Below, one piece after another: positions 13,604 through 49,146 of a stretch of DNA of 64,000 bases; position 1 is the first letter of the stretch, and every line of letters begins with the position of its first letter. A model generated the notes under the pieces. The model made no database searches and had not been told where the DNA came from. It saw nothing but the letters and a program-made list of their open reading frames with translations. Position numbers and translations under genes: made by a program. The DNA is from a virus. The stretch lies in the IMG/VR virus record IMGVR_UViG_3300031760_000017. One strand, given 5' to 3'.

Positions 13604-16600
13604 TCAATCTATATAACCAACCCATCCTCTATACGGACTACCATATGAATGTCCATCATACCATCTTCCAAGAGCATAACCCCATTCAAAATAAAGAATC
13701 CGAGGAGAACTTGAATCATTTGGATCTGCATGCTCGATCCATATATCTGTAACAATCTGTCCCCAAGAAACTTTTTGATTATCATAAGTAAAATAATCAG
13801 CTTCTAATTCTTCAGTTGAAAGATAATCTGATCTAATTTGTGAAGCAGTCAAATAATCTGATCTAATTTGTGAAGCAGTTAGATAATTTGCATTAAGAGT
13901 TTGAGTAGAAACATAATTTGCTTTAACTTGATTAAATTCTGCTTTATCAGCATATAATGTATCACATTTTATAATCATCTTATCAGTCAAACTTCCAGAA
14001 TAATAACTGTTGGTCATATCACTAGCCATAACAGTATTAGGATCTAACCAAGAGTCACCTGAGCCTCCTATAGTAAAACCATATCCATTTAAGGACTGTC
14101 CACTCATAACCTATCCATAAATTTTCCCAAAATAAGCATCTCCATTTGCGCTAATAGACCAAGAAGGACCAGATATACTACCCTCATAATCAAGAGAAAG
14201 ATTACCAGCTTTTAAATCATAAGTATTAATATTCCATCCGCCTATCTGTCCGGAGCTTGCATTTATCTCGCCTGATAAATTTACATTAGATGCTGTTAGA
14301 TTACCATTATTATCAACAGAAAATCTAGAACCAAGAGCAATTTCATCAGTTCCAATATAAACGCTTCTATTATTTCCTTTTGTTCCAAAAGAAATTGAAC
14401 TTAAATTAGCTGTAAAATCTCCTTTAATAGTCCAATGATTTCCAGATAAATACCCCATTTCTAAAGTCGCAGGTTTTATTGTTCCATTATCTGAATATCT
14501 ATTAGTAAATCTAAAAGAATTTCCTAAAGATAAGCCAAGAGGAGATAAATGAAAACCATCAGCTGTATTAGTTAATTCTGTTTTATTTCCACTATAAATA
14601 CGACTACGATCAGCTTCTAAAGTAATTTTTTGACTATTTAAAGAATTACTTTCAGTACCAATTAATTTAGTACCATTTATAGTCCAACCGCCAATTTGAC
14701 CAGATGTTGCGGTAATTTTCCCACTTAAATCTGTATTAGTAGCAACTAAATTTCCATTAGAATCTACTTTAAAACGTCCTGAACCATATCTTATTTCAGG
14801 TTTTGTTAAATCAATTAATAAACCTTGACCTTTTTCATTACTAGATGTATAATTAGATGGTAAGCCATTTTCATTATAATTTTTCCAAAAATTACCACTA
14901 TATAATAAAGCATGACTAGTACTTGGATCTATTACAATTTGCCCATTGTTAGCTTTTCCAAATAACGCAGAACCATTTTCACTATTTAAAAAGAAAGTTC
15001 TATCACCTTTATTATATCCTAATAATCCAATGTCAGGAGCAGTCTTATCTGGATTTTTAACTTCACCCATTAAAACTCCAGTAAAACTATTATCATTTTC
15101 TTTTTTACCTGCGCCCATTTGCGGAGCTAAGATATAACCACCCTTATCATCTAATTGAATACTGTTGCCATCCCAAGCGTTAATATGAGCTAATCCATAT
15201 TTATTTAATAAGAAATGAATAGGAATATGAATTCTAGCAATAACCTAATTATTATTAACACTTTTAACAGTACATACTAAAGCATTATTAACACACTAGC
15301 CGCTATACCTTGAAGCTGGTCGACATATGCATTGATTCTTTTGTAAATTTTTAGTATAATAACTCTAAGTTAATAACTCTAAATCATGAGAATCGTTATT
15401 ATAAGGAAACTAATCATACTAACCTACTTCAATCTAATGTGTCTGTATTATATTTATAACATCACCATTAACTGAATAACTAAAATTAACTGCATGACTT
15501 CCAGAAACTAATGATATATCTTCCCATTTATTATTTATTTTTTCTTTAATAATAAATTCAAAAGGTTTAGAATTGTCATATTGAGGAGATAAACCATCAG
15601 AACTATACATGACATATCTAAATCCAGTATAATCTTTTAATTCAATTCTATAATTATCATTTTTAACCCATGCAGTTGCAATAGGCAATGTACTATAATA
15701 TGAGTGCTGATTATAAGTTATTGTGCATTTTAGAATATCTGCTAATGTTTGCGTAAAAGTAGTGTCTATTGGATGTGCTGTTGTATTCACATATGAAATA
15801 AGTCCAGTATTAGCATTTACAATATTAAAAGAACTTTCATCAGTAAAATTTGTTTTATAAAAATTCTTTAACATGTTCCAAGTTACAGAACTAGGACTAG
15901 TTACACCATCTTTTGGATTTGCGGCAGTTGAAGTTCCTTCCCAAATCAAATCTCCACTTTGCCATAGCTGAGCTTTAAATAAGGTTTTTCCAACATTAAA
16001 TCCTGCAGTTTGCTACTATCCAGTTCCGCTTGCCGCAAAATTAATAATATAAGAATTAGAATCTCCTATTGCTGTTAAAGTAGGGTAAATAGGTAATATT
16101 TTTGCTGTACTATTTGGAACAATTTTCACAATATATTGGGTCCCATTTGTACCAGGTTCTCCCTATTTTACAAAAGTAAAGTTAGTTTTTGCAACTAAAT
16201 TAATCTACTTATAAGTTACAAATAATTCAATCTGATTATTTAATTTTTTTACATCATATTTTTGTGCAATATCATAAACTAAAGTATCTAAATTTGAATA
16301 ATATCTATAACCTTCCTATTCAACTGCCCATGTTTTATTGTTTTTGTCAACTAATAAAGTATTTTCAATAGGAATTTTCCAAGTAACTTGTCTTTTCTTT
16401 ATATCATCAGTAATATCATTCCCTAAATTATCATATACCTTAAAAGTTAAAGCTAAAATCTATTGCGGATCATCTAAACTTTTACTATTAGGCGCAATAC
16501 CATTCTAATTATATTTATATGATGCAGAGCCATTTTCAATAATTAGTGAATATATATTTTCCGCCTATAAAGAATTACTTAAAGTAATTGAAGCTGTTCC

Positions 16601-18295
16601 TATATAATTATGATTTAAATCTTCTACCGTACATTTAAATATAGCAAATCCATCTATTGCATTAACTTGTAAATCATAAATTTTATTTTTACTTACTCTT
16701 TGTGTATATTTAAAATTAGAAAGAGTAGTTTCATAATTATTTAGTTCTTGTTGTGCTTCATTTTTAAATCTAGTTCCAGCTTGAATACTATTTTTTAATG
16801 ACTGCAAAGCATTATAAGTAGTTGTATAGTTATTATTTAATTCAGTCGTTGTTTCTAAAGCTTCTAATCCACAGTTATTATTTTGCCAAGCCCAATAGTA
16901 ATTATAATTTTGTATATTTTCAACTCCATTTACTTTACAAGTTAATGTTGGATGTCCAATATCATAATAAAATTGAGTGCCACTATCTGACTATATTATA
17001 ATATCTGCCGCATTAGCTTGTAAATTTTGAATTGTGATTTCCTTAGAAATAACTGTATTATCATATAAAACCGCAACTTTTAATTTATTTTCTCTTGCAG
17101 TTGCATCTTCTCGATAAACTATATAAGTACTATCTCCAGGCACCCATTCTATTTGAGGAGCTTGAGTTGCAGTTCCAGGTGAAATAATATTTTTTTCATT
17201 TACACATTTCCAACCGCGTCCTAAATGTTGATTATAATACTAACTATTTGCAAAAATACCAACATTTTCTTTTCCCCAATAGAAAGATAAATTTTGAGAA
17301 TCTGATACTAATTTTCCTTTTATTCTTACCTGTGCGGTAACTATTAATTCTTCTTTTGGAGAAGGATTTGTAGCTTGTTTAAAGAAAATACCTTTTGGAG
17401 TATAAAATGAAATAGATATTCCATTATTTTCTTCATCGCTTTTTCTTATAGCACCTAAAATTTCAACAGAAGAAATAAAGATATTTACTCCATTATCTGT
17501 TGATCTTAAAGGATAATGCTAAGGTGTCCCGGATGCTGAATTAGGAAAATCCTAGCAAAAGATTTCAATAGAATCAATTCTAACAAAGTTTTCTCCATCT
17601 ATTTCAAAAATCTAATATTGTCTAGTATTATGTTCAAATCTATAAGGATTACCTGTCATATTATCTTCATCAAGCGTATAGCTTTTAATTATCTATTTAG
17701 AATTTCCATTAGATTCTAAATTAGAATTATCATTAAATACTAAATTAAAAGTTATACCATAATGACCTTGATATTGTTCCTATAATGGAATAGTATTTCT
17801 TATAGTCATTCCTGCAATTAAAGAAGATGCTTTTTTAATATATTGATTTAAAGCATCATTATCTAATTTTAGCGGTGATGAGCTAACTCCATATTTATAA
17901 ATAACATAACTATATTTCTTATATTTTGTAGCTAAATAATAAATGCCGCTTGTTGTAACGCAATTCTTACCTAATATATCATATGCCTACTATCCAACCG
18001 CTTCAGAAACATAGTTAATTCCAAGTTTCTAAGTTGTACCAAGAATAGTTTTATCTTTGCTCATATCATTTCCTGGAACTAAAATATAAACATATGCACC
18101 TTTAGAATAAGTAATATCTGCCGAACCCGCATACGCAAAAAAAGTTGTATCTTGATAACGACATTTATATTTTCCTATTGTCGCATCTTCACAAGAAATA
18201 ATTTGAGCTTGAATAGTTTTATCATATCCAGCTTTTTTTATTGAATTATTAGTTAATAATTCAATCGCGTCTAAAATTTTCTAATTAACGCCCAT
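13604..18295 (-). CDS. giant tail hub/fibre protein, 1563 aa with TAG=Gln
   Basis: Track ORFs at 16807, 15949, 15118 and 14107 all share the frame of ATG 18295. Hand translation of 15118-15434 and other stretches shows only TAG interruptions. The N-terminus is OB-fold-like (GAYVYILVPGNDMSKDKTILG). The C-terminus has repeated SGQIGGW(T/N)IN motifs. Confidence 0.65.
13823..13890 (-). repeat. 30-nt tandem repeat (about 2.3 copies) inside the giant tail gene
   Basis: ATAATCTGATCTAATTTGTGAAGCAGT(C/T)A(A/G) occurs twice plus a partial copy. It encodes YLTASQIRSD repeats. Confidence 0.8.
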
Positions 18296-18383
18296 CTTTT
18301 ATCTCCTTATATCTCTTGTCTTTTATATTATAACATAAATTTTTTATTTCTTCAAACCAGTTTAAAGAATATTATGTTAAATT

Positions 18384-18548
18384 TCATATTTTTCTTGTTT
18401 TTAGAACTCCATCATAATTATATCTAGTTATCTAAAAAAAATCTTGTTTTGAAATTTTTTCTTCTTTAACTAAATTTATCATATCTATGAGTTCATAAGC
18501 TCCACAATTCCATTTTTCTTGAATTTTAATTAAATTAAATTCTTTCAT
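18384..18548 (-). CDS. hypothetical small protein (54 aa)
   Basis: GGAGAAATAA then ATG. MKEFNLIKIQEKWNCGAYELIDM..., with one TAG, ending at TGA 18386-18384. Confidence 0.4.
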
Positions 18549-18611
18549 TTATTTCTCCTTTTAAACAATAAAATAAGGAAATAGTATTAAAATACTATTT
18601 CCTTATTATTT

Positions 18612-21600
18612 TTATTTTCTTCTCATAGCACGTTGAGCCGCTAAATTAACTAAATCATTTAAAGCTTCTTCAATCTATTGTTTACTATTTACAGCAGGGA
18701 AAGATGCTGAAATCTGAACTTTTTGATCAATAACATCACTAAGAGTTGAAGCTGAATTTAAAGAAAATCTATCAGTAGAGATTTTCCCAATTTTATTTAA
18801 TAAAGATGTTCCTATATTTTTTGTAATAGATCTTAAAATAGAAACACTATTTAAAATATTTCTAGTATCTTCTGAATTTAAAACTAATTCTTTTTCATCC
18901 AATATTGCTAAACGACCTTGTTTTGAATTCCAACTTCCTGTATATCCACCTGTATCATATCTTTTTATTTTTCTATTATAAAGTCCAACAGGATCATTTA
19001 TATTCATATGAAGAACGTCATGATTATCTAAATGTCTAAGATCTCCAACTCTATTGCTATTATAATCATAGACTCCATTATCAGCTCCTCTTCCCCATCT
19101 ATAATGATTTTCTGAGCCATTAGGATAATATGTTTCAGATTCAGGCTCTTCATAAGAAACAGTATCTTGCATTCTGTTTAAAGCATCTTGATAGCGGTCA
19201 GCAGCAGACTACATTCTACTAGCATTAGCTTCTGCATTACTTGCTAAAGCATCTAAAGCCGCTTGAGCTTCATTACTATAATCCCAATCAGCATCCGCCA
19301 TTCGAATCCTCATATCTTCATAAGTCTGCGCAGTTGCCTAAGCTGATGCGGCAGCCTATTGCTAAGCTTGAACGAAATCATATAATTGAGTAACTGCATT
19401 TGCCGCAGCTGTATAAACAGAATCATAATCATAAACAAGAGCTTGAGCAGCATCTCTTAAATCTTGAATAGCAGATAATTCATCAGCCATTCTATTGATT
19501 AAATCATCATTAACTTCAATTAATCCAGTAAATTCATCTATTAAATTATCTACTCCATTTTGAACATCATTTAAATCTATACCAGCAGTATTAGCTAAAC
19601 TATCAAGTTCTTGCTAATAATTAAAAGTAGCCTCATGAATCTCTTCAAAAGCTTCTTGACAAGATGGTATAAAACCGCCCTATCCCGCAACTTTATCAGA
19701 CATCTATTGAATACCGCTATTCCATGCTGGAACTAAATCGCCCATTAGAATACCTTTTTCATCATCTGTCATCTTTTGATAATTTGCAACATCTATGTTA
19801 TAAATTGCGGCAATCTCATTAAAAGCAGATTCAGTTAGATTTTTTCTAATATCAGAATTTTGTTGAGCTTTATTATTAATATATTCTCCATATTGCTCTT
19901 TTAATAAAGCTAGCTATCTAACTCTTTCTTCTTCTGTTAAAGAAGTATCAGTAACTATATCTTTATATTTCTATTGGAAATCTCTCCAAGCAGAAAGCAT
20001 TTCCTATAAATTATTTTGATAACGCTATTTATCAAAATTATATAATTCATTTTGAGCACTAATTAATCCTTGTTCAGCATCAAAAATACCATTTTGATCA
20101 GCAACATATTGATAAGAATAGTTACCTTGTGAATCACGTTTTAATCTTAAAGAAGTTTTACTTGCTCTTATATCTTCTAAAGCAATTCGTGCTTGTTCAA
20201 TTTGAAGCATCTTCTACGCTCTATCTACATCATATTGAGTAATCTTCTATTTATTCTTTAAATTATCTAATTGCTCATCCATAACTTTCTTTAAAGCTTG
20301 TTGATGTTTCAATTGATTTGGATTATTTAATGATTTTTGGAACTTATTTTGTAAATCCTGAAGAGCAAAAGCAGCATTAATTGTATCTAAGTATTCATCC
20401 GCATTTTTATTCATTAAATCCCATTCATCACTTAAATAATCAGTACCTTTTCCGTCTGTAATTTTCTTATCTAGCTAATCAAAAATTTTATCAATAGCAT
20501 TACTGTATTTTTCACTGATTGTTTTTGCGGAAGTTTCTATTAAAGAATTGATTTCCTTAATAGCGTTTTTATAATTTTCTTCAAATTGTTTTGCCGCATT
20601 AGTATCTCCCGCTAATAAAGCTTGCTACCATTCTTGTTTCCAAAAAGCAATCTATTTTCTTAAAGCATCTATTTGATTATTTTGATTTTTTTCTAATTCA
20701 GCATAATAATTTTCCATAGCTTCATAATTTTCATCACCATAAAGCAATTTTAATAAATCCATATCATGCTAAATTAAATCATTAATAAAATCATAATCAT
20801 CTTGTTGTTTCTCAAATTGTTTAGAAATATCATCAATAGTATCTAAATAAGCTTTATCAATATCCGCAATTAAATCTTCAATATCCTACATTTGTTTCAT
20901 TAATTCGGATAAATCACTTTTTAAATCCGCCATAGCTTGTGCTTTATTATTACCATAAATTGCGGAAGTTCCTTTTTTATCTATATCTTCTATTTCTTTA
21001 CGAGTATTTAATAATTGCTATGTTAATTTTTGAACAGTACCTATTGAACCATTTATATTAAAGAAAGAATCTAAATCCATAACATTTTTAGTAGCATCTT
21101 TAAAAATCTTATCGAAATCAGTATCTTTCATAAAATCAGTTTTATTAATTACATTTCTTACAAACTAATTCCAATCTTTTGCAGCTTCGCCCATCTATAA
21201 TCGAATTTCAAGCTACATTCTAAATTTTTTAATATTAATTTCAATCTACTTTTGGGCAATCTATTCAATCTAATCTACTATATCTTCCATGCTATTTCTT
21301 AAAGAATCATAATCTTTAATTTTAGCTTGAGTATTTTTTAAATCTTCTTGAGCAGATTGCACAGCTTTATCATAAGCTGAAATTTGTTTATCTAATCCTT
21401 CTTTATAAGTTTTATCAGTAGAAGCATTATAAGATTCAATTAAACTATTCTATTCATTTATTAATCTATTAACCGCATCTTGTTTAGCTTGTAATATAGA
21501 CATATAATCATTTATATTTCCATATTCATCAAAAGTAACTCCTAATGAATTTAGAATTTGCTGTTGATTAGCTAAATCTTGTCTTTGAAGCTATTGCTTT

Positions 21601-24600
21601 TCTTTTAATTTTCTTTTTTGAGCTTCTAATATTGCGGTTTGTTTATTTAAATTATCAAGTAATTGTTTACCATATAATTTATCTTGAATTTTTTGAGTTC
21701 GCTCTAAATCACGATTAATTTTCTTTATTTCAATGTCAATATCGTGATATAAATCTTTCTCTTGCTCTATTGGCTTTTTAGTATTTTTAGTAGAAGTATT
21801 AGTATTATCTTTTGCAGTTTTATCTGCTGCTTTTTGAGCTTTTTCAGCCTCAGCTTTTCTCCTTGCTTGACCCTTTGCTCCAGCGCCATTAGCAGATTTT
21901 TTATATTTAAAACCACCACCAGAAGTTTTATGTGCGGAAACAACTTTTAAAGCAAATGCAGTATGCTATTTAGTTTCCGTATCATCCGCAGGAACTGTTT
22001 TATAACGAATAGTAGGCACTCTATATGTTACCTAACTTCCATCTATGGGGTTTACACCAGTAACTTCTCTATTTGTAACTTCAGCTTCTGCGCCAGTGTA
22101 CTGAACTGTATCTTGCGCAGTTGTTTTTTGCTAGATGATTTCAGCATCTACACCCATAGAAGCTAAATAATCTGTTGCTTGTTTTGCTGTCATATTGGCA
22201 GCATTTACCATATTACTTAATTCTTTTAAGAATCCTTCATTATCCAATGAAGCTCCGATTTTTAAATCCTATAAATTTTTACCCTAATAATATAATTCCA
22301 TTATATCATCAAAGTCTTTCTTAAAAGCTTCTGTATCTAAATGAATTTGGGTAGCAATATCTTGTCCAGCTAATTGCATTAATTGATCATAAGCTTCTAC
22401 ATTACCATCAATTGCCGCCTTCATTAATTTTAAATTCTCAACATTTGTTAAGAAATTATTAGATAATGACTAACCATCTAAATCAAGTAAATCAGCATAA
22501 GCATCTCTTAATCCAGAAATTGCCTATGATTGTTCTTGCCAAGAGCCACTTTGTAAAGCTCCTAGCCAAGTATCATAATTATCAACAACATCTTGAATAG
22601 CATTATCAAATCTTAAAATTGATTCAGCAAGTTCTTCCGCACCTTCACGATCCTATTTTAAAACTTTTGATAATTCTTCACTTTGCTATGATAAACTTTG
22701 AATATCTTTAGTAAGATTTGCATAAGCTGTCTCATCAACATCCGAATCTGTTGGAAACATAGCATCATGTAACTGATGAGCAAGTTTTTCTTCTTCCTAT
22801 TTTAACTAAGCAGTCCTATCACTTAAATCTTTAGTTTGATCACCTACTTTAGCAACAGCATCATAAATCTACTTTACTATACCTGGAAACTCCTAAAGCC
22901 ATTCTTTTGATTTTTGTTGCTTTTCAATAATAGCTGTCCATTCATTTATAATAGGCTAAGTGGCTCCATCTGTATCTTTTAAATATTCAATTTGTTTCTT
23001 TAATAAATCAAAATCAGCATGATTATTTTGAAGAGCTCTATTATCTAATTCATCATAATCATACTGTTTCTAAGATAATAATTGAACTCTATTTAATTCA
23101 GATTCAATCTAGAATAAAGTATTTTTAAATCCTTCTAATTTTAAATTATTAATAAGTGTATAGAACTATTCTGCATCTTCAGTCATTTTATATGACCCAT
23201 TAGCCATCATAGTAAAGAAAGATTGAATCTAAGGAGCTAAATCTCCAAATTCAGTTTTTGAAACGCTCTTTCCACTTCTAACTTGATCTTCAAGAGACTG
23301 ATAAAAAGCATAATTCTCTGCAGCGTCTCCCTGCATAGCAGAAATTTCTTTTATATTAGAAAAATCTGCATGTGAGATATTATCAACAACATTACCTAAA
23401 GTATCCCAGTTAGAAAATATTGATGGAGAAAGTTCAAAAGCTTTAAATAATTCCTCTAAATGTTGTTCATCTAATTCAGATAAATTTTTAATTATTTTAT
23501 CCGGAATTATTCCTGATGCTTTTTCTTGAATTTTATCAATAATTTTACCAATTTCATTATATTGATTATAAAGTTGAGACTATTCAGTAAGAAGATATGA
23601 ATCAGCTAATTCTTTTGCAGTTGTATCTCCTACAAATTCACCCTGCTATTCTAAAGCTGCTTGTAATTTTTGTCTTTGTTGTAAAAATTCTCCAGCATTT
23701 GTTACATTAGAAAAATCAAGGACGCCATGAGCTTCTTTTGATAATCCTATAAAAGCTGCTTGATTTTCATTAACATCTTTCGAAGCGTTGTCAAAAGCTT
23801 CCATCTATTCTGCTGAATCTGCAACCCATTGTGTTAAATCTTTATACCATTGAGATTGTCTCTATTGTTCGCTTAAAGTTTTGCTTAAATCTTCAACAGC
23901 TTTTTTAACTCTAGGATACATTATTAACAAGGACTATAAATTATAATCAACTTTATATTCAATAGTTCCATTATCTTGTTGGCGAAAACCATTTTCACTT
24001 AATATCTCTTTAGCTTCATCGCTCATTCTATTGCTACCAAAAGATAAAGCATAATCAATTTGATTGTCTTCACCAAGTGAACCTTTTACACCACGTTTTC
24101 CTTGAAGTTCAAAAGAGCTCCATAGGTTTTGTTTTGCTGCTTCATACTATTCTTTACTGGAATTATATTTTTTCTAAGCTTCTTCAGCTTTTAATTCTTT
24201 TAAAGTTTGAATTAAATTATCATAATTATTACGTAATCTATCTGCCGCATCGCCTTCAAGACCATATTGATTAATTAAATCTTCTATTCCTGATTTTAAA
24301 TCAGATCTTGTAATCTAGCCTTCTTTATATTTTTGATTTAGCTCTTCAATAGATTTATATAATTCTTGATTTCTACTTAATTGTTCTTGAAGTGTATTTG
24401 CTTCCTAAATAACTGATTCATTATGTTCAATTTGTGCTTTTCTAGCCTATTTACTTTTATTTATTAAAAAACCGAGTGCTGTTACAGCAGCTAATGCAGC
24501 TGTAATAAAAGCTCCTAATGGAGTAATTGTAATAACACTATTAAGAAATTGAATTTGAAAACCTGCTTCTGTTGCAGCAGCACCTATAGCACCAAATGAA

Positions 24601-27263
24601 ACGGCCTTAGCTCCATTAGAAGTAATAACAGCTGCCGCTTCTGCTGTACTCTTTCTAAATTGATAATTTAAAAGATTAGTTGCTTTTCCAACAGCCCCAA
24701 TTCCTTTAATTAACATTGGTAATGAAAAAGATAAATTTGTAACAATTTGAAGTATTCTTTGTCCAGTAGATAAATCCTGATTTTTCCAAACACTTCCTAA
24801 ATGTTGAATTTGTTGAATAGAAGACCCAATTCGAGCAAGACCTGCAGCAGCTTTTGCATATTCCTCAATTCTAACAGCTCTGTCTTTATTTGACATCTCC
24901 CCATTAAAATCGTTTTGTTTTGCATTCATTTGACCGCGCAATTTCTACAATTCAGGAACAATTTTTGGATCATTATAAACCTATTTAAAAATTTTTTCTA
25001 TTTTTGTTTTAATTTCATTACCACTAGTTTCTGTTATTTCTGCTAATTTATCAAAAAAATCTTTAAATTTTTGAAAAGTTTCTTCATTTACACTTTTAGA
25101 AAATCTTTTAGGTAAATCTTCATATAATTGACCAATCTCTTCAATAGCTTTTTGAGTTTCTTTAGAAAACTATTGATTACTAGTCATTTCATCAAAAACT
25201 TCTTTAAGATCTTTTGCTCCTAATCGTAAAGTAGTAAAAAAACTTCTTATGCCATCTTGCCCTACTTTATCAAATATATTTAAAAACTTTTCAGTTGATT
25301 GAGAAACAGACTCAGTTGATTCTTGAAATTCATCATATTCTTGCTAACATTTTTCTAGCATATTTAATATTTCATCAATTTTTTCAGGCTTTCCAACAAT
25401 ATTTTCTAATTTTGTCGTACCTAACTCTTGTCCTGAAATTCTATCTATTAACTATTCTAAAGGTTGTTTTTGTTTAACTAAAGTTTGAATCTAATTTCCA
25501 ATATTAGTAATATCATTTAATAATTTTTGTGCTCCTTGAAATTCTTCTGGAGACATCATTCTTGATAGTTCTAATAAATGTTCTCTATCTTTTAATAAGC
25601 TTTTACTTACTTCATCTAATTCAGGAATTCCTTGCCAATCTTTTGTTGCTTGTAAGGCATTATCAAATTCTCTAGCATTACTATTTGCAATCTCAAGGTT
25701 AGTAATAGTTGTATTTATTCCTTTAGCAATTTGTTCACTAAAAACAGCAACCCCAATAGCTCCAAGAGATTGTAATAATGCCTTACCTCCGCCTAAGCCA
25801 TCAATAAAGTTTGCAACAAAAACTGCAACACCCGATAATGCATCAGTTATACTCTTTATAGAATCAACATCAATTAAACTATCATATACATCTTCAACGG
25901 AAGCTTTTAATTGCTTTAAATGCGCGGCAGTTGAATCCATATATATATCTTGTTGCTTTTGTAAGGTACCTGCTGCATTTTGCGCTGTATTTAATGCTTC
26001 ATTATATTCTTCAAAATTATCAAATAAAGCAAGTAAATTATTATATTGTCTTTGACCAGCCATTGTTTGAGCTAAATAAATTTGCTGTTCACGAGTTAAA
26101 TCATCCCAACGACCGCCAATTTCTTCCATAACTTCGCCCATATCACGAAGATTTCCATTCATGTCAAGAACATTAAAACCAAGTTGTGCCATTTGACTAG
26201 AATATCTACCAAGAGTAACTCCATCTTCATCAATTCCAGCTTTAATATCACTAATACGAGCATAAACAGTTCTTAAAGCTGTACCAACACTCTAAGGAGC
26301 TTGTCTTGTTGCAGAAATAATAGTTGATAACTGTGCAGCTAATTGCTATTCACTAACACCCATTGTGGCGGCCGTACTTGCAACTTTACCCATACCTTTA
26401 CTTAATTCTTCAAGATCTGATGCGGTTGTTGCAGCAACAGCAGCTAATCTATCAATATATATCTAAGCCTAATCCGCATTAACCTTATAACCATTCCAAA
26501 CGGCAGTTAACTGTTCAGAAACGTCTGCTGTTGATTGATTTGTAACATTTGCTGTTTTTAATGTAATTGCGGTTCTAGCCTAAATTTCTTTATCTGATAA
26601 ACCCTGTTGAGCATAAATTAAAGCAGCATTAGTGTAATCTACTGTTGTAGTGCCTAGTTGTTTGGCTGCATTATTGGCTTGCTCTGCAAATCTTCCCATT
26701 TCATCAGCAGTCTTACTAGTAACGATTCTAATATCATTTAATGAAGTATCTAATGATTTAACATATCCAACTGCTTGTTGAATAGTACTAGTGAAACCAC
26801 GAAATACAGTATTAGCTAAATTATATTTTGCAACATTAACAAAAGTCTAAGCAAATTTATCAAGCACTTGATGAGTTTGCTTTAATTCTGCATTAACACT
26901 TAATACATGAGACGATAAATTTCTAAAAGCATTCTCACCAACAGCACCGCTCTTAGAAAAACTTTGATAGACTTTTTCTATTGAAGTTCCAGATTCATTT
27001 AATGACTTATTAAAACTTTCAACATTTGTAGTATTTAATTTTGCATTAAAAGCAGCTCTTAATGCTTTCTATACATTTCCAGCCTATTTCTGAATTGCTA
27101 TTAAATCGGTTTTAGCTGTATCAAAATCAGAATTATTTATTTTCATCATATCTTTTATAGTTAAATTTTGAATCTCTTTTAAAGATTTTTTTAACTAATT
27201 TAAACTCTGTTTTTGAATGTCAAAACCAATAGAATAGATAATATCTCCACCCTTTTTTGCCAT
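18612..27263 (-). CDS. tail tape measure protein (TP901-family N-terminal domain), about 2883 aa with TAG=Gln
   Basis: ATG 27263 follows AAAAGGAG. Track ORFs starting at 26192, 24941, 20210 and 19172 are all in its frame. The N-terminal region matches the TMP pattern (…GMGKVASTAATMGVS…LGFNVLDMNGNLR…). TM segments lie at about 24450-24700. The C-terminus is typical (DTGGYTG…LAILDEKELVLN). Spot checks found no in-frame TAA/TGA. Confidence 0.7.
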
Positions 27264-27375: not shown

Positions 27376-27404
27376 TTGATGAATTATAAAAATTTTGATA
27401 TAAT
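27376..27404 (+). promoter_or_regulatory. sigma70-type promoter (TTGATG-N17-TATAAT)
   Basis: -35 at 27376-27381 and -10 at 27399-27404, in the divergent region between the TMP gene and the plus-strand block. Confidence 0.55.
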
Positions 27405-28276: not shown

Positions 28277-29851
28277 ATGATTTAGAAAATTGTAACTACT
28301 GTAATTCCAATTTTAGTACCTATTGTAATAATCGCTCTCTTATGCCTTGCAATTACCTTAATTGGTAAAGCTATGTATAAGAAATCTCCGCCAAATATGG
28401 CAATGGTTGTAACTGGACCTTTTGGAAATAAAACAATTATTGGTAAAGGTTGTTTTGTAATTCCTATTCTTGAAAGAGTAGACTTCCTTTCTCTTGAAAA
28501 TATGCAATCAGACTTTACATCTAAAGATGACATTCCTACAAAAGATGCCATCAATATTTTAGTAGATGCAGTTGCTAACTTTGCAATTTCAACTGATCCG
28601 AAGACTCTTCCAAAGGCTGCTGCAAAATTCTTAGGTAAGAAACCAAAGCAAATTGAGGAAATTGTAAGACCGGTTCTTGAAGGTAATATCCGAGAAATTA
28701 TTTCTCAAACAACTTTAAAAGAACTTATTCAAGGTGATAAAAAGAAACTTGCAGAAAGAATTATTGAAAATGTTACTCCCAATCTTCAAGATATGGGTCT
28801 TGAATTAACAACTTTTAATATTCAGAATTTCAAAGATAAAAATGGAGTAATTGATAACTTAGGTCTTCAAAACACAGTCCAAATTAGTAAAGATGCTGCT
28901 ATTTCTAAAGCAAAAGCTGAACAGGAAATTGCAGTTGCGGAAGCTAATGCGCGAAAAGCTGCTAATGAAGCTCAAATTGCTGCGGAAACTGAAATTGCAG
29001 AAAGAGAAAATAAGCTTACAATTAAAAGATCTGAATTAAAAAAGCAGGAAGATATTAAGAAAGCAGAAGCTGATGCTGCTTATGAAATTCAGCAACAGGA
29101 ACAGCAAAAAATAATCGAAATTGCAACTGCCGATGCAAAACTTGCAAGACAAGAAAAAGAAATTGATTTGCAAGAACGTGAAGTTAGTATTAGAGAGCGT
29201 AAACTTGAAGCTGAAGTTAAGAAAACGGCAGAAGCTAGAAAATACGCTGCTCAACAGGAATCTGATGCAAATCTTTATGCAACTCAAAAGAGTTCTGAAG
29301 CTGATTTATTTGAAAGACAAAAGAAAGCTGAAGCTGAACAGTATGAAGCAGAACGACGTGCGGAGGCTCAAAAAGCTAAAGCTGAGGCTGAAAAATTTGC
29401 AAAAATTCAGGAAGCAGAAGCTATTAAAGAAACTGGTACTGCGGAAGCTGAAGCTATTAAAGCTAAAGGTACCGCAGAAGCTGAGGCTATTAGAGCTAAG
29501 GCGACCGCTGAAGCTGAAGGTTTGTTAAAGAAAGCTGAAGCTATGGAAAGATATGGTGAAGCAGCTCGTGAACAGCAAAAACTTGACGCGTTAAAGATTT
29601 ACTTTGAACAGCTACCCGCAATTGCTGAAGCTATCGGTTCAGGCTATGCAAATGTTGAAAAGATGGTTATGTTCGGAGATGATTCTTCAAAATTAAGTGG
29701 TAATATCATTAATAATATTACTCAAGTTTCTGAGGGTCTTAATGAATCACTTGGTATTGATTTAAAATCTTTAATGTCTGCTTTTATCGGTGGAAAGATT
29801 GTTGATGCAAATCATACTGAAGTAACTGAAGTAACTAAAGAAGAAGAATAA
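28277..29851 (+). CDS. flotillin / SPFH (band-7) family membrane protein, 524 aa, TAG at codon 3
   Basis: AAGGAG RBS, then ATG 28277, ATT, TAG. The N-terminal TM helix IVTTVIPILVPIVIIALLCLAI is followed by an SPFH core and a long A/E/K-rich coiled coil. The track's ATG at 28373 lacks an RBS and would drop the TM helix. Confidence 0.75.
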
Positions 29852-29861
29852 TAATTTATGA

Positions 29862-29913
29862 CAAGGAGAATATAAAAATTCTCCTTGTTTTTTTTATAAA
29901 TTTTTATTATAAT
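29862..29913 (+). promoter_or_regulatory. fused terminator-promoter cassette
   Basis: Hairpin CAAGGAGAAT-ataaaa-ATTCTCCTTG. Its terminal TTG starts the -35 TTGTTT (29885-29890). The T-run forms the 17-nt spacer. TATAAT at 29908-29913. Confidence 0.65.
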
Positions 29914-30706: not shown

Positions 30707-30735
30707 TTGATTTTTTATAAAATTTTTAATATAAT
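30707..30735 (+). promoter_or_regulatory. sigma70-type promoter (TTGATT-N17-TATAAT)
   Basis: -35 at 30707-30712 and -10 at 30730-30735. Confidence 0.6.
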
Positions 30736-40058: not shown

Positions 40059-40856
40059 ATGAAATATATATTAAAAAATGGTTAGTAGATAGAGTCCATT
40101 GATATTGGAAAGGCTAATATCAAAATAGGGCAAAGAAATAATCGACTTACTATTTGTGATAGAGCGCCTAATACAAAATCAAAAAAAGCACGTATAATTT
40201 GTTTATGTGATTGTGGACAATACACAGTTATAAATCATCAAGATTTTAAAAATGGACAAGTTAAAAGTTGTGGATGCTATGCAAAAGAAATACATGCTGA
40301 AATAGGAAGAAAAACTGCTATAGATTTCACTCAATCATAGTACAATAATAATCCATTTTATGAATATATTGAACCTACAGATGTTAGATTTAATTGGAGT
40401 AAACAAGTAGTATGGAAGGTTAAATGTAGAAAATGTAATAAAGAATATTTAGCAATTCCTAAAGAATTAATTTCTATAAATAATAATAAGCGTATGAATC
40501 CTTGTAATTGTTGGAAAACTTATAGTATTGGAGTTCAACGTATTATTGCAATATTAGAAAAAAATAATATTTCTTATGAATTAGAAAAAAAATTTGATAC
40601 ATGTATTTCACCAAAAGGAAATTGTTTACCTTTTGATTTCTATCTTCCTGATTATAAGATTTTAATAGAATATGATGGACAACAACATTTTAATATAGCA
40701 TTTGGTCAAAATGAAAATAAATTGATTCAACAAAAAAAATATGATAAAATAAAAAATGAATGGTGTAAAAATAATAATATTCATTTAATTAGGATACCTT
40801 ATTATCAAAAAGAAATTACAATTTAGAATTTAATAGGAGAAAAAATTAATGGGTAA
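40059..40856 (+). CDS. PD-(D/E)XK-type endonuclease (free-standing homing-endonuclease-like), 265 aa with TAG=Gln
   Basis: The N-terminal Cys-rich region is followed by FDFYLPDYKILIEYDGQQH...NIHLIRIPY. TAG TAG at codons 9-10. The frame continues through TAG 40824-40826 to TAA 40854-40856, overlapping the gyrB start. Confidence 0.55.
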
Positions 40857-42562
40857 ATTATATACAGAAGACTCGATAGAAAGCTTATCTCCTCTCGAAT
40901 TTACACGACTTAGACCTGGTGTATATTGTGGAGACACTAATTACTCTACTCAATTATTAATTGAAATATTTTCAAATGCAGTAGATGAATACCGTAATGG
41001 ATTTGGAAATAGAATTGATGTAACTATTCTCCCTGACATGATTTCGGTTAGAGATTATGGGCAAGGATTTATTCCAAATTCATATCGGGACGATGGAAAA
41101 ACAATTCTTGAAGCGGCATTTAGTGTTTTAAATACATCTGGAAAATATCGAGATGATGGAACCTATGAAGGAACTTCTTTAGGTTCTTTTGGTATCGGTT
41201 CAAAAATTACGACTTTCCTTTCTCATTGGTTAAGAGTTAAAACTATGAGAGATTCAGAGTGGGAAGAAATATATTTTAAAGAGGGCGTATTTCAATACCG
41301 AACAAGCGGTGCTGGAGGAGTTACTGGAACTCTTGTTGAATGGCAACCTTCAGAAGAATTTTTTACTCATCCAGAAGTAGAAATTAAAAAGGTCGTAGAT
41401 TTATTTAAAACTATTACATGTCTTTGCCCTGGTCTAACAATTAATCTATATGACCATGGAAAACATACTGTTTTTGTTTCTGATAATGGAATTAATGATT
41501 TAATTGATGAAGCTGTAAAAGACACAGAGCTTATTAATAATCGTTTTTCAATGAACTTTTCAGAAGGCAAAAATAAATTTGATATGGTTCTTACTTATGC
41601 AGGCAATTATTCTTTAACAATGGTCCCATATGTAAACACTGGACTTACAGAATCTGGACCTCATATTACTCAAATCAAAACCGTTATCACAAGAGAATTT
41701 AATAAATTCTTTAAAGAAAAAAAATGGTTAAAAGATAAAGATTCTAACTTAACTGGTGATGATATTCAAGAGGGTATGTATGTAATATTTAATCTTACTG
41801 CTCCCAATGTTGGTTATGACGCTCAAGTCAAGAGTAGAATCACAAAGATTGACATGAGTCCTTTTACTTCTGCATTAAGTACAAATTTAAACATTTGGCT
41901 TAATAATAATGAAAAAGAAATAAAAATTATTTTTGAAAAAGCAACAGCCGCCCGTAAGGCAAGAGATGCCGCAAAGAAAGCAAGAGATAAAGCAAGAGAG
42001 CAAAATAAAAAGAAACAGAAAGCTCTTAAATTCGATAGTAAACTTGCAGATTGTAATTCAAAAGATAGAAGTAAATGTGAAATTTATATTACTGAGGGAG
42101 ATAGTGCATCTGGTAATTTAAAGCTTGCTCGTGATAATGAAACACAGGCGGTTATGCCAGTTAGAGGTAAAATTTTAAATACTCAAAAAGCTACTTTTGC
42201 ACAGATTCAAAAAAATGCAGAAATTATGACAATGTGTGATGCCTTCTTTGGACCTGGAGACTGGTCTATTGACCCTAAGACTCTTAAAGTAACTTATAGT
42301 CAAGTAAGATATGGCAAAATAATCATTATGTCAGATGCTGATTGTGATGGAGCGCATATTAAAAATCTTTTTTACACCTTTATATGGAATTTCTGTCCTG
42401 ATCTAGTTCAAAAAGGGTATGTTTATGCTGGGGTTCCCCCGCTTTATAAAATTACTCTTCCTGCAAATAAAGGATATAAATATTTAAAAAATGATGAAGC
42501 ATTAAATGAATTTAAAAGCAAGAATAAAGATAAAAAATATCAGATCGGACGCATGAAAGGGT
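40849..42562 (+). CDS. gyrB: type IIA topoisomerase subunit B (GyrB/ParE-like), exon 1
   Basis: GHKL ATPase and Toprim motifs (EIYITEGDSASG, IIIMSDADCDGAHI). The conserved ...QIGRMKG is followed in the standard frame by unrelated residues, and joining at T42562 restores KGLGEM. Confidence 0.8.
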
Positions 42563-43595
42563 ACGAGTTAGTCTGGCCCTTAGCTACTTTTCCGCGGATC
42601 GGCGGGGTTGCCTAAAATAGGCAGCTAACGAGGTAGTCTTCTATTTAAAATTTTGGACATTTTAGGATAATCTGAAATGTGAAATTTTTATAATATATAG
42701 AAGATAATCTCGTGGGAAAAAATTACGATATTATCTCCAAAAAAATTAAAGGAGATAAAATAATGATAGGAATTTATAAAATTACAAATTTACTAAATGG
42801 TCATAGTTATATTGGATTATCTACTCATATTGAAGATAGATGGGAATATCATAAAAATCCATATAACTGGAATAGAGAAAAGAATAAATCTTTATACAAA
42901 GCAATTTTAAAATATGGTATCGAAAATTTTTCTTTTGAAATACTTGAATAGTGCTTACCAGAACAGTTAAGTGAAAAAGAAAAATACTATATTGAAAAAT
43001 ATAATACATATCATGCTGGTTATAATATGACTGCCGGCGGTGAAGATAATCAAGGTGAAAGTCATCCAAGACACAAATTAACAAAAGAAGATGTGATAGA
43101 TATTAGAACTAGATATGACAATCTTGAAAGAAAAAAAGATGTGTATTAGTTATATAAAGATAGAATTGGAGAAAGTGGTTTTTCTAAAATTTGGAAGGGC
43201 AACACTTGGACTTCTATAATGATGGAAGTTTACACTCCTTAGAATAAAAAATATCATTTACATGATACGGCAAATAAAGGCTCTCAAAATGGAAGAGCTA
43301 GATTAACTGAATAGGATGTAAGAGCTATTCGATTAAGAAGAAAGAACGGCGAAAAATTATCTGATGTATATGCAAATTATAAACATCTTTTAACCAAAGG
43401 GTCTTTTACGAATATTTGGTCGTATCAAAATTGGAAAAATATCGTAGTTTAAACCTGTATCGACTATCCCCTTTGTCGGGGAGTACATCTCTTATTGATA
43501 CAGAGATGGAAACAGTAGCGCCCTATGACTACAGTAAATGCGTTAGTACGAGGGCAAGAAATAGTCAGTGCCATTGGTAACAATGGATTAACACG
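42563..43595 (+). mobile_element. group I intron (1033 nt) carrying a GIY-YIG homing endonuclease gene
   Basis: The 5' exon ends in U (42562) and the intron ends in G (43595). Exon AAGGGU (42557-42562) pairs with intron GCCCUU (42576-42581), giving the U-G wobble at the splice site (P1). Both intron ends are G+C-rich and structured. Splicing restores frame and motif. Confidence 0.75.
42763..43452 (+). CDS. GIY-YIG homing endonuclease (intron-encoded), 229 aa with TAG=Gln
   Basis: AAAGGAG RBS. GIYKITNLLNGHSYIGLS...R...H...YGIENFSFEILE-TAG-C. Four in-frame TAGs. TAA at 43450-43452. Confidence 0.75.
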
Positions 43596-43786
43596 TAGGT
43601 GAAATGAGCATCGAAGAGACAGAAGAAACTTTAACTAATCCAAATAATAGAATCATTAAACAAATTACTGTTGAAGATGTTGCGGCGGCTGATAAACTTT
43701 TTAATGATTTAATGGGAAATACAGTTATTCCTAGAAAAAGGTATATTAAAGAGCATAGTGCGGAGGCTACTTACAATGCAGAATAA
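43596..43786 (+). CDS. gyrB: type IIA topoisomerase subunit B, exon 2
   Basis: (L)GEMSIEETEETL...ITVEDVAAADKLFNDLMGNTVIPRKRYIKEH matches the GyrB C-terminal tail. Spliced length is 1905 nt, or 634 aa. Confidence 0.75.
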
Positions 43787-44003
43787 TGAATGTGAATGTT
43801 TATATGGAATATATGATTGGGAACTATTTTTAAATAGTAAAAAACAATTTTTAAATAAAAGGTTATGTATCGTTCATATTCCAAAAGATAATTTTCATAA
43901 AGATAAATATTGTCTTTATTACGTCTGTAAAGAGAATCCTTTTGAAGAGGGAGTTAAAGCATATATTAATTTTTGTCCGTATTGTGGAAGAAAACTTTTA
44001 TAA
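43776..44003 (+). CDS. small Cys-rich (zinc-ribbon) protein
   Basis: MQNNECECLYG...CPYCGRKLL. ATG 43776 overlaps the gyrB stop region. Confidence 0.45.
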   Translation: MQNNECECLYGIYDWELFLNSKKQFLNKRLCIVHIPKDNFHKDKYCLYYVCKENPFEEGVKAYINFCPYCGRKLL

Positions 44004-46604: not shown

Positions 46605-46655
46605 GTGAAGAATATTTATTCTTCACTTGTTTTTTATAAAAAATTATATTATAAT
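46603..46655 (+). promoter_or_regulatory. fused terminator-promoter cassette
   Basis: Hairpin AAGTGAAGAATA-ttt-ATTCTTCACTT. -35 TTGTTT at 46627-46632 and TATAAT at 46650-46655. Confidence 0.65.
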
Positions 46656-46684: not shown

Positions 46685-48691
46685 ATGAAAAGCAAAATAG
46701 ATATTGGTATTTTAATTAAAAAACTTAATAAAGCTACTAAAGCCTATGATGCAGGGCATCCTATTATGACAGATAGAGAATGGGATGACCTTTATTTTGA
46801 GCTAGTCGAATGGGAAAGACAAACTGGTATTATTTTTGCAGATTCTCCAACCCAAAAAATTCATTTTGAAAAAGTTTCTGAATTAAAAAAAGTGAAACAT
46901 AATCATCTTATGCTTTCTCTTAATAAAACAAAAGATATTAAAGAAGTGTTAGATTTTGTAAAAAATAATCCTTGGATTGCTATGGCAAAAATGGATGGTT
47001 TAACATGTTCGCTTAGATACCTTCATGGAGAACTTGTTTCTGCAGAAACTCGCGGGGATGGTCTTATTGGTGAAGATGTCACCCATAATGCAAAGGTTAT
47101 TTCATCTATCCCTCAAAAAATTAATTACACTGATGAATTAATTGTTGATGGAGAAATCATTTGTACTTATGAAGATTTTAAACCATTTGAAAGAACTTAT
47201 AAAAATCCTAGAAATTTTGCAAGTGGAAGTATTAGATTATTAGATTCAAAAGAATGTCAAAAAAGACATCTTACTTTTGTTGCCTGGGATTCTTTTTGTG
47301 ATAATAAAATTTATGATGAGTATTTAAATATTCCTTATAATATTCAGATTACATTGTCTTTAAAATTACAAGTTCTTCAAGATTTAGGTTTTACAGTGGT
47401 TCCTCATTTGGTTGATGTAGAGGAATGGTCTGTTGAAGACGCTATATCAATAATTAGAGACAAATATCATACTATCTATCCTATTGATGGCGTTGTAATT
47501 AAATACAATGATATAGATGATTATAATGCGGCTGGCCGCACAGAACACCATTTTAAAGGCGGTTTAGCATATAAGTTTTATGATGAACTTTATGATACTC
47601 GTTTAAAATATATTCAGTGGACAATGGGAAGAACAGGCGTCCTTACTCCAGTGGCAGTTTTTGACCCCATTGATATTGATGGTTCAACAGTAGAAAGAGC
47701 GTCACTTCATAATGTTAGTGTTATGAGAGAGATTCTCGGTGATTGTGCTTATCGCGGTGAACCGTTAAAAATTGCTAAAATGAATCAAATTATTCCACAG
47801 GTCATAGAAGCTGGTCCAAAATATGATTATGGATATGTAATAAGTCATGGTGGAGTTTCCGCAAATGATGTTATTGAAAGATGTCCAATTTGTTATGGAG
47901 AGGTTGAATATAAAGAAAGTTCGGAAGGGGTCATAAATGCATACTGCACAAATCCAAAGTGTGAAGGAAAACTAGTTAATAGACTTGATCACTTTTGTGG
48001 GAAAAAAGGATTAGACATTAAAGGGATTTCAAAAGCAACTCTTGGAAAATTTATTGAATGGGGCTGGGTAGAAAACATAGAAGATTTATATTACATTTCC
48101 GAAAAATTTAGGTCGGACTTCTTACTTAAACCTGGCTTCGGAGTTAAATCAGTTATTAAAATTTTAAATGCAATAGAAGAAAGTAAACATACAACACTTG
48201 ATGCTTTTATTTCTGCTATTGGTATCCCTCTTATTGGACGAGCAGTTGCTAAAGATTTAACTAATTATTTTGAAACTTATGAAGATTTCCGTGATGCTGT
48301 AAAAGATAATTCATATCATTTCTATGATTTAGATAACTTTGGTATAGAAATGGAAAATAGTATTAAGAATTTTGATTACGCGGAAGCTGATAGACTTTCT
48401 AAAATTTTATATATTGAAGCCCCAGTTGTAAGCAACAATCAAATAAATAATAGTCTTTCAGGAAAAACTATAGTCATTACGGGAAAACTTACAAAATTTA
48501 AGAATAGAGCTGAATTGAAATCAGTTATTGAAAAACATGGCGGGAAAGTTACAGACTCAATTTCCGCAAAAACAGATATGTTAATAAACAACGATATAAA
48601 TAGCACATCATCTAAAAATAAAGCCGCAAAAGCACGCAATATACCAATTATAACAGAAACTGATTTTATACAGCTTTATATTGAAAATTAA
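46685..48691 (+). CDS. ligA: NAD-dependent DNA ligase
   Basis: Adenylation motif AKMDGLT, a four-Cys Zn finger CPICYG...CTNPKCEG, HhH repeats and a C-terminal BRCT domain (GKTIVITGKL). Confidence 0.85.
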   Translation: MKSKIDIGILIKKLNKATKAYDAGHPIMTDREWDDLYFELVEWERQTGIIFADSPTQKIHFEKVSELKKVKHNHLMLSLNKTKDIKEVLDFVKNNPWIAMAKMDGLTCSLRYLHGELVSAETRGDGLIGEDVTHNAKVISSIPQKINYTDELIVDGEIICTYEDFKPFERTYKNPRNFASGSIRLLDSKECQKRHLTFVAWDSFCDNKIYDEYLNIPYNIQITLSLKLQVLQDLGFTVVPHLVDVEEWSVEDAISIIRDKYHTIYPIDGVVIKYNDIDDYNAAGRTEHHFKGGLAYKFYDELYDTRLKYIQWTMGRTGVLTPVAVFDPIDIDGSTVERASLHNVSVMREILGDCAYRGEPLKIAKMNQIIPQVIEAGPKYDYGYVISHGGVSANDVIERCPICYGEVEYKESSEGVINAYCTNPKCEGKLVNRLDHFCGKKGLDIKGISKATLGKFIEWGWVENIEDLYYISEKFRSDFLLKPGFGVKSVIKILNAIEESKHTTLDAFISAIGIPLIGRAVAKDLTNYFETYEDFRDAVKDNSYHFYDLDNFGIEMENSIKNFDYAEADRLSKILYIEAPVVSNNQINNSLSGKTIVITGKLTKFKNRAELKSVIEKHGGKVTDSISAKTDMLINNDINSTSSKNKAAKARNIPIITETDFIQLYIEN

Positions 48692-48791
48692 AAAAATTTT
48701 TAATATAATAAGAATAGATGATAAATGAAATAAAATTTATCTTTTATATAAATACATTATAATAAATACATAATTTAAAGGAGAAAAAAAT

Positions 48792-49079: not shown

Positions 49080-49096
49080 TAATTAAGAAAATTGGG

Positions 49097-49130: not shown

Positions 49131-49146
49131 TTATCAGGAGATAAAA

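Follow-up and report, generated by a model that had tools for sequence, protein, structure and literature searches.

In T4-like myoviruses, composite motifs termed PeSLs (promoter-early stem-loops) join a sigma70-like promoter to a stem-loop, which may overlap the -35 or the -10 element (Arbiol et al. 2010, PMC2839356). The PeSL stem-loops terminate transcription and the PeSL promoters fire in reporter assays (PMC2839356), and PeSLs additionally mark sites of gene exchange (PMC2839356; Comeau et al. 2014, PMC4122927). Here we describe a similar design in a 64,000-nt stretch of viral DNA, IMG/VR record IMGVR_UViG_3300031760_000017 (the whole stretch is hereafter referred to as the window), in which cassettes composed of a hairpin, a T-run and a promoter stand between successive genes. 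In these cassettes, the nucleotides of the terminator 3' arm and U-tract are the nucleotides of the -35 element and the spacer. We put at roughly 80% the probability that the cassette is a Rho-independent terminator (stem-loop plus 6-9 U) fused to a SigA/sigma70-type promoter; that transcription indeed ends and starts there, that the host polymerase is involved, and when this happens are inferred.

The initial annotation of this stretch had described at least seven such sites. All seven are present at the coordinates it gave, each with an exact TTGNNN-N17-TATAAT on the plus strand (cassettes 1-7), and two more, at 39398-39464 and 60234-60306, are added here. The nine sites are as follows.

Cassette 1: 29860-29913, plus strand; hairpin 29860-29889 (-15.9 kcal/mol, z-score -5.1); -35 TTGTTT 29885-29890; T-run in the spacer; -10 TATAAT 29908-29913; upstream stop codon ending at 29851, downstream ATG at 29946.
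Cassette 2: 33280-33335, plus strand; hairpin 33280-33310 (-18.7 kcal/mol, z-score -6.0); -35 TTGTTT 33307-33312; -10 33330-33335; upstream stop codon ending at 33263, downstream ATG at 33369.
Cassette 3: 35024-35075, plus strand, 3' of the RNA ligase gene; hairpin 35024-35048 (-14.0 kcal/mol, z-score -5.1); -35 TTGTTT 35047-35052; extended -10 TGT-TATAAT to 35075; ATG at 35111.
Cassette 4: 46602-46655, plus strand, at the junction of gyrA and the NAD-dependent ligase gene; hairpin 46602-46629, containing the gyrA stop codon (-12.9 kcal/mol, z-score -7.1); -35 TTGTTT 46627-46632; -10 46650-46655; ATG at 46685.
Cassette 5: 54305-54357, plus strand, 5' of the yorH-like/DnaB/primase operon; hairpin 54305-54341 (-18.6 kcal/mol, z-score -7.4); -35 TTGACA 54329-54334 in the 3' arm; T9; TGT-TATAAT to 54357; ATG at 54388.
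Cassette 6: 58141-58182, plus strand; hairpin 58141-58168 (-11.5 kcal/mol, z-score -4.7); -35 TTGACA 58154-58159 (loop and 3' arm); T8; TGT-TATAAT to 58182; ATG at 58217.
Cassette 7: 63276-63324, plus strand; hairpin 63276-63301 (-18.1 kcal/mol, z-score -6.5); -35 TTGACT 63296-63301 in the 3' arm; -10 63319-63324; ATG at 63358.
Cassette 8 (added here): 39398-39464, plus strand; hairpin 39398-39428; T-run leading into -35 TTGAAA 39436-39441; -10 39459-39464; ATG at 39491 (RNase H gene).
Cassette 9 (added here): 60234-60306, plus strand; imperfect hairpin 60234-60277 (-20.1 kcal/mol) abutting -35 TTGATT 60278-60283; T7; TGT-TATAAT to 60306; ATG at 60337; member of repeat family D1.

Folded as RNA, the hairpins of cassettes 1-7 range from -11.5 to -18.7 kcal/mol, with z-scores from -4.7 to -7.4, and none of 200 shuffled sequences is as stable. 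The repeats are perfect or near-perfect, with 3-6 G-C pairs in the stems. The manner in which the stem takes in the -35 element varies. Specifically, TTG is base-paired at the stem end in cassettes 1, 2 and 4, TT is paired and the G lies just outside the stem in cassette 3, the entire -35 hexamer sits within the 3' arm in cassettes 5 and 7, and the hexamer extends across the loop and 3' arm in cassette 6. Each of these seven stems is followed by 6-9 consecutive T residues that fall within the 17-nt spacer, so that the earlier description of a 3' arm or loop ending in TTG, a T-run serving as spacer and a distance of exactly 17 nt is accurate for all seven. The hairpin starts 5-16 nt past the stop codon in cassettes 1, 2, 3, 5 and 6, and in cassette 4 the stem itself contains the stop codon. 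All nine sites share TTG, a spacer of exactly 17 nt and an exact TATAAT. The full -35 consensus TTGACA is present in cassettes 5 and 6 and TTGACT in cassette 7, and cassettes 1-4 have only TTGTTT. Additionally, a TGn-extended -10 element (TGT-TATAAT) occurs in cassettes 3, 5 and 6 and in the promoters at 60278 and 52171. The distance from the -10 end to the ATG is 29-35 nt in the cassettes, with a ribosome-binding site (RBS) in between.

The likeness to PeSLs is considerable. Both elements combine a stem-loop that ends, or in the cassettes is predicted to end, upstream transcription with a near-consensus sigma70-type promoter (TTGACA-N17-TATAAT). Overlap of the stem-loop with the -35 element is possible in both, many copies occur per genome, a Shine-Dalgarno sequence and start codon lie downstream, and, at several of the cassettes as at PeSLs, adjoining genes differ between close relatives. 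However, PeSLs are found in T4-like phages of Gram-negative hosts, within hyperplastic ORFan regions, whereas the cassettes belong to an SPbeta-like, TAG-recoded phage and also flank core replication genes (gyrA, the ligase gene and the DnaB gene). The PeSL stem-loop is mostly located between the -35 and -10 elements or over the -10, often in a G(n)-loop-C(n) form, whereas the cassette stem is located upstream of or over the -35 element, with a canonical U-tract filling the spacer. The cassette repeats are 32-67 nt long, compared with the ~100 bp quoted for PeSLs, for which mini-circle formation and reporter activity have been demonstrated. Taken together, the design is already known in kind from PeSLs, and the cassettes are a further example of a composite promoter/terminator, analogous to PeSLs and not members of the set specific to T4-like (Tevenvirinae) phages. 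An ordinary tandem of terminator and SigA promoter, as in Firmicutes and their phages, displays the same succession of stop codon, hairpin and U-tract, -35 element, 17-nt spacer, TGn, -10 element and next gene; in the cassettes, by contrast, the signals share nucleotides in a preferred register, degrading the -35 element to TTGTTT.

Bacillus phage SPbeta (SPBc2) provides a closer comparison in gene content. Its replication modules are homologous to those of the window and syntenic with them, with the same order of Sak4-like, yorH-like, DnaB, primase and RecJ-like genes, and a stem-loop is annotated at its yorG-yorH junction, in the same place as cassette 5. In SPbeta, however, this stem-loop is directly followed by the RBS, with no fused promoter. 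A 41-kb stretch of SPbeta checked for the fused design lacks it and holds only one strict promoter match, which makes the design a trait of the uncultivated family represented by the window and not of SPbeta-like phages generally.

The fused arrangement exceeds what base composition or shared intergenic space would produce. The window contains 27 matches to the strict pattern TTG-N20-TATAAT, whereas dinucleotide-preserving shuffles give 3.81 +/- 1.94. Nearly all matches follow the coding strand; 24 are on the plus strand and 3 on the minus, and 17 fall within the plus-strand gene block at 27-64 kb. When the spacer length is scanned on the plus strand, 17 nt yields 24 matches, and lengths of 14-16 and 18-21 nt yield 1-4 each. 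The 27-64 kb block contains 11 intergenic terminator-like sites on the plus strand, eight of which have a -35 element starting between -14 and +9 nt from the stem end. Random placement of 16 promoters in the 2532 intergenic nt gives a mean of 1.56 such terminators and a maximum of 7, and eight were reached in 0 of 20,000 trials. Because the observed 8/11 lies beyond all random placements, the fusion is not explained by the mere sharing of intergenic DNA, and chance or AT-richness as a cause is excluded by the strict-pattern counts, the shuffles and the placement trials.

Relatives of the phage were collected as 162 loci from three IMG/VR scans, many on contigs of 130-145 kb. The window and these related loci together contain 732 distinct strict promoters. 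Of these, 145 show a T-run and a hairpin that ends at the -35 element with an energy of -8 kcal/mol or lower, compared with 14 when the upstream 45 nt are shuffled. Among promoters with a downstream RBS and ATG, 104 of 354 are of the fused type, and a strict promoter lies 9-43 nt downstream of 61 of 206 terminator-like sites, where promoter density would predict ~2. The register mode places the start of the -10 element 21 nt past the stem end, so that pairing stops with the G of TTG.

Conservation at orthologous junctions points the same way. At the junction following the RNA ligase gene (cassette 3), 23 of 24 distinct relatives (66-97% protein identity) have a hairpin ending at TTGTTT, with energies from -12.6 to -20.3 kcal/mol, followed by a nearly invariant promoter. 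At the junction preceding the DnaB operon (cassette 5), the design is present in 48 of 51 distinct contexts, down to a downstream-protein identity of 34%. At the gyrA-ligase junction (cassette 4), at least 10 relatives have the hairpin-TTG-T-run-17 nt-TATAAT arrangement on stems that differ widely; the cassette is absent from one relative, L003, and two others, L004 and L005, are identical from TTG on and unrelated upstream. MAFFT alignment and RNAalifold on 18 orthologous cassettes predicted no pairs, the variable stem and loop lengths shifting the 5' arms out of register. We therefore used an alignment-free covariation test in which the complement of the 7 nt 5' of the promoter TTG is sought upstream. 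Within their own sequences, the heptamers find on average 6.56 of 7 complementary positions, with a perfect complement in 11 of 16, compared with 4.32 of 7 and 1 of 238 in cross-sequence controls; 15 different heptamers occur among the 16 cassettes. Additionally, for the cassette 7 stem, RNAalifold identifies 4 compensatory pairs across 11 relatives. Together, these comparisons show, at the level of sequence evolution, a real cassette design that is conserved across a large phage family with stem covariation, in which pairing, TTG, T-run, 17-nt spacing and TATAAT are all under selection and the stem sequence is free to vary.

The covariation also bears on whether the repeats act as DNA and not as RNA, either as operators of a phage regulator, similar to SPBRE/MrpR, or as cruciforms that hide the -35 element and thereby switch the promoter. 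The repeat does overlap the -35 element, the phage encodes gyrase itself, a T(n)ATA A(n) palindrome occurs in many spacers, and the distant relative SPbeta uses a repeated promoter-proximal operator (PMC10516654). However, SPBRE is a sequence-conserved 15-bp repressor site (PMC10516654), in contrast to the variable cassette hairpin. A T-run follows every repeat on the coding strand only, and the position of the hairpins 5-16 nt past the stop codon, or overlapping it in cassette 4, is the geometry of a terminator. We regard a DNA-level role as very improbable and reject it, since only complementarity is kept (15 heptamers in 16 cassettes) and a protein operator would retain its sequence.

Under the terminator-promoter reading, a polymerase coming from the upstream gene would transcribe the hairpin and be released in the T-run before crossing the -10 element, and a new SigA holoenzyme would start ~7 nt past TATAAT, giving a leader of 22-28 nt that carries the RBS only. 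The region of replication and nucleotide metabolism would be split into short units that each have a separate promoter strength; the mRNAs upstream would acquire a 3' hairpin, and the downstream promoter would be shielded from read-through (occlusion). These would be the insulated, re-initiating units proposed in the initial annotation.

A milder version of this scheme, which we find rather unlikely, treats the cassettes as leaky attenuators and boosters, whose hairpins mainly stabilise upstream mRNA 3' ends and terminate only partially and whose promoters add to a long polycistronic message, in which case no insulation of the units would result. The moderate stems (-11.5 to -18.7 kcal/mol) would suit it, and the stem-loops of PeSLs have been termed 'terminator/attenuator' (PMC2839356). 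It gains further from terminators without a promoter of their own, two of which stand before the holin and endolysin genes, whose expression needs read-through at some time. Three such terminators lie in the window.

36707-36748, plus strand: promoter-less terminator directly before the holin RBS and ATG (36764).
37039-37082, plus strand: promoter-less terminator directly before the TAG-rich endolysin gene (37098-39383).
49093-49135, plus strand: promoter-less terminator directly before the TAG-rich gene 49147-50091.

The holin and endolysin terminators are strong, with only an RBS after the T-run, and the holin arrangement is kept in 21 distinct relatives with covarying stems. Because promoter-less terminators before expressed genes imply read-through at some stage, they keep the attenuator reading alive. 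On the other hand, a strong intrinsic terminator consists of a perfect stem and an uninterrupted U-tract of 6-9, and it is this configuration, with the U-tract right after a perfect stem, that the cassettes present. Moreover, terminators before standard-code replication genes nearly always have their own promoter (9 of 12), which suggests that read-through alone is insufficient. Immediately 5' of the hairpin of the holin terminator is a conserved TTGGACAAAA(T/A)T... box; as a repeated late promoter it finds no support in the window, where TTGGACAAAA has one exact copy and, at 2 mismatches, 37 occurrences against 44 expected.

Several observations weigh against the reading as a fused terminator and promoter. 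TTGTTT is a weak -35 element, with 3 of 6 consensus matches, and G-C pairs number only 3-4 in several stems, which are AT-rich. Termination could be altered by a holoenzyme bound at the promoter, since it would cover the DNA of the terminator. The intergenic spaces, just 80-105 nt long, force terminator and promoter close together, and the overlap spares only ~10-20 nt. A loose consensus promoter scan of this 30% GC DNA finds no enrichment (120 against 108.6 expected; 133 against 126), which limits the informative signal to the strict TTG-N20-TATAAT pattern. Finally, promoters of the same family with T-rich spacers occur without a hairpin at 30707 and 1398, so that the T-run is partly a trait of the promoter family. 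The initial annotation had equated spacer and terminator T-run; this overlap is present in the cassettes, but the hairpin-less promoters at 30707 and 1398 show that the T-run is not solely a by-product of termination. They also provide a plausible origin for the cassettes, since a hairpin placed before a promoter with a T-rich spacer would make a terminator at once. At the same time, there are signs that the overlap is a real constraint with a measurable cost to the -35 element. In the window and related loci, TTGTTT is nearly confined to fused sites (48, against 14 others), as expected from the overlap of the -35 element with the U-tract, and the first spacer positions carry more information in fused than in stand-alone sites.

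The stand-alone promoters, estimated at about ten in the initial annotation, number 10-11 when counted upstream of an RBS and ATG. The following have the same 17-nt architecture.

27376-27404, plus strand: stand-alone promoter, TTGATG-N17-TATAAT.
30707-30735, plus strand: stand-alone promoter, TTGATT-N17-TATAAT, with a T-rich spacer like that of the fused class, without hairpin.
40000-40028, plus strand: stand-alone promoter, TTGTTA-N17-TATAAT.
48681-48709, plus strand: stand-alone promoter, TTGAAA-N17-TATAAT, overlapping the end of the ligase gene.
51557-51585, plus strand: stand-alone promoter, TTGAAA-N17-TATAAT, with a TG-extended -10 element.
52171-52199, plus strand: stand-alone consensus promoter, TTGACA-N17-TGT-TATAAT.
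63105-63133, plus strand: stand-alone consensus promoter, TTGACA-N17-TATAAT, 5' of a conserved non-coding RNA of ~143 nt.

The TG of the extended -10 element is part of the family consensus in both the fused and the stand-alone sets. Two spacer classes are apparent across these sets. One has T(5-7)-ATA-A(4-6) after TTGaTT or TTGTTT (for example, 30707, 33307, 46627 and 60278; repeat families D1 and D5), and the other has A(6-7)T(5-6) after TTGACA or TTGAAA (for example, 12758, 48681, 52171 and 63105; repeat family D3). The classes could correspond to two regulatory or temporal groups of promoters, or to binding sites within the spacer. The cassette repeat families D1, D3 and D5 comprise 4-5 copies each, 32-67 nt long and 66-91% identical.

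The promoter at 63105-63133 would drive a predicted RNA of ~143 nt (63134-63276) ending at the terminator of cassette 7. This RNA has no conserved open reading frame (ORF), the ATG being lost in relative L041, and at least 12 related loci carry it at 74-99% identity. Two GGTAC..TCCAATGG repeats lie within it, its folding z-score is -4.6, and an Rfam search with it returned no family. We consider the transcript a candidate phage small RNA.

The plus-strand block encodes an SPFH/flotillin protein, a protein with the shoulder domain of the Major Vault Protein (MVP), an RNA ligase with kinase and phosphoesterase, holin, endolysin, RNase H, GyrB, GyrA, an NAD-dependent DNA ligase, a Sak4-like ATPase, DnaB, primase, a RecJ-like exonuclease and a Dda-like helicase. 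A Megablast search of GenBank phages with a 20-kb query gave no match, and tblastn with GyrA gave only matches of at most 40% identity, in unannotated records. DnaB matches from cultured phages, at ~40% identity, all come from Firmicutes phages (125 of 125). The holin is of the Phage_holin_1 family (PF04531), and the endolysin has amidase, glucosaminidase and SH3 domains. A Firmicute is thus the probable host, in keeping with the synteny of the replication genes with SPbeta and with the TGn-extended -10 element (-16 region), which is typical of Firmicutes. A host polymerase of the SigA type is a reasonable inference from the TTGACA/TATAAT hexamers, the 17-nt spacer, TGn, the Firmicutes-only relatives of DnaB, Phage_holin_1 and the lack of any sigma or RNA polymerase gene among the window proteins scanned; hosts among the Bacteroidetes use a different promoter consensus.

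Host sigma70/SigA-type transcription, as proposed in the initial annotation, thus fits the hexamers, the spacing and TGn, but its limitation to early and middle genes is not established; the same promoter type is also found before TAG-rich, probably late, genes (12758 on the plus strand and 18355 on the minus strand). The alternative that a sigma factor or polymerase encoded by the phage reads these promoters appears improbable. The window is 64 kb of a genome of ~140 kb, so a sigma gene could sit elsewhere, and the spacer sequences are unusually conserved; yet the hexamers, the 17-nt spacing and TGn are exactly the consensus of a primary sigma factor, and no sigma factor or RNA polymerase domain was found among the scanned proteins of the window. 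Near the promoter at 18355-18327 on the minus strand, which is of the SigA type, a perfect 16-bp hairpin (18574-18605) with T-runs on both strands lies ~220 nt away, on the upstream side of the promoter; it resembles a bidirectional terminator and is located between two giant minus-strand ORFs.

Recoding of TAG is indicated by the ORFs themselves. Long ORFs emerge only when TAG is taken as sense, for example one of 2883 aa with 71 TAGs and one of 1563 aa with 26, and the TAG-sense ORFs are at 3833-7672 (plus), 7690-8703 (minus), 13604-27263 (minus), and 37098-39383, 49147-51528 and 58423-60204 (plus). In both the endolysin and the RecJ-like protein, alignments to Pfam domains run through TAG positions, and the endolysin gene (37098-39383) alone has 14 in-frame TAG codons. 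TAG therefore appears to be read as an amino acid, in a TAG-to-Gln code resembling code 15; TAG-recoded phages have been surveyed previously (bioRxiv 10.1101/2021.08.26.457843, PMC10607447). The window has four tRNAs (Gln-TTG, Gly, Arg and Cys), none of them a suppressor tRNA. TAG-rich genes are interspersed with TAG-free ones, even inside one operon.

Some TAG-containing genes encode GIY-YIG and other endonuclease-like proteins (40059-40856, 42763-43452, 43777-43997 and 49147-50091) and are located in the surroundings of gyrB and gyrA and close to thyX. In the closest relative (L105/L001), segments 40068-40858 and 42560-43598 are precisely missing, and these genes look like mobile homing-endonuclease insertions. 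The SPFH/flotillin protein and the protein with Major Vault Protein repeat and shoulder domains are encoded side by side (28373-29851 and 30774-33263), an unusual pair in a phage. The RNA-repair-like module at 33779-36667 comprises an RNA ligase (Rnl, PHA02142-type), a P-loop kinase (AAA_33) and a metallophosphoesterase, and its composition would fit counter-defence against tRNA-cleaving host nucleases.

Differences between relatives raise the question of how far the cassettes serve gene exchange. By analogy with PeSLs, it is likely that the conserved promoter half has a secondary, non-exclusive role as a homology patch for such exchange. A stronger proposal, possible but on balance doubtful in our view, holds that the cassettes are primarily recombination modules in PeSL style, with the conserved promoter half as homology for gene swaps between co-infecting relatives and regulation secondary. 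The repeat families described above would supply the homology, and the 29-nt promoter after the RNA ligase gene, almost identical across relatives, precedes at least four unrelated gene families. Breakpoints relative to close relatives lie at the ATG after cassettes 1, 2 and 6 and at the promoters at 40000 and 63105, and L004 and L005, joined to unrelated upstream sequence at the TTG, as well as the cassette-less L003, are in line with such swaps. However, gene insertions and deletions break in intergenic DNA anyway, and ~28% of gene boundaries have a promoter; only ~12 breakpoints are available, and any enrichment over ordinary gene boundaries is weak. The homology is short and of low complexity, and cassette 5 is syntenically stable in its 48 of 51 contexts. 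Lambdoid morons offer a further parallel, being one or a few genes that carry a promoter and a terminator of their own on either side and come and go as units; they differ in being scattered insertions in late operons, with unfused signals and no repeated conserved motif.

The arrangement before the lysis genes suggests, from sequence features, that lysis may be gated by terminator read-through (antitermination) together with TAG suppression. We tentatively extend this to a broader proposal, which we think is more probably wrong than right: the cassettes would be a Gram-positive counterpart of PeSLs, namely mobile regulatory modules combining transcription punctuation and gene shuffling across this phage family, and also one half of a two-tier programme, in which fused SigA promoters re-initiate transcription of standard-code replication genes while the lysis genes stand behind promoter-less terminators, with TAGs in the endolysin gene. 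If this is true, lysis would need both terminator read-through via an antiterminator and TAG suppression.

The cassettes, 45-55 nt long, are compact natural parts that could insulate synthetic operons in Firmicutes. They indicate that a composite promoter/terminator design has arisen or been kept in a phage lineage unrelated to the T4-like phages, with Gram-positive hosts, and they favour a host whose polymerase is of the SigA type over one among the Bacteroidetes. The contrast between fused cassettes and the promoter-less terminators of holin and endolysin suggests that read-through, stop-codon recoding and lysis timing may be linked in a way that can be tested. For uncultivated recoded phages, the cassettes amount to a conserved regulatory grammar, one that would not surprise a specialist in phage transcription, and they give a transcription map, with unit boundaries, promoter classes and leader lengths, for a large TAG-recoded family of ~130-145 kb genomes known only from metagenomes.

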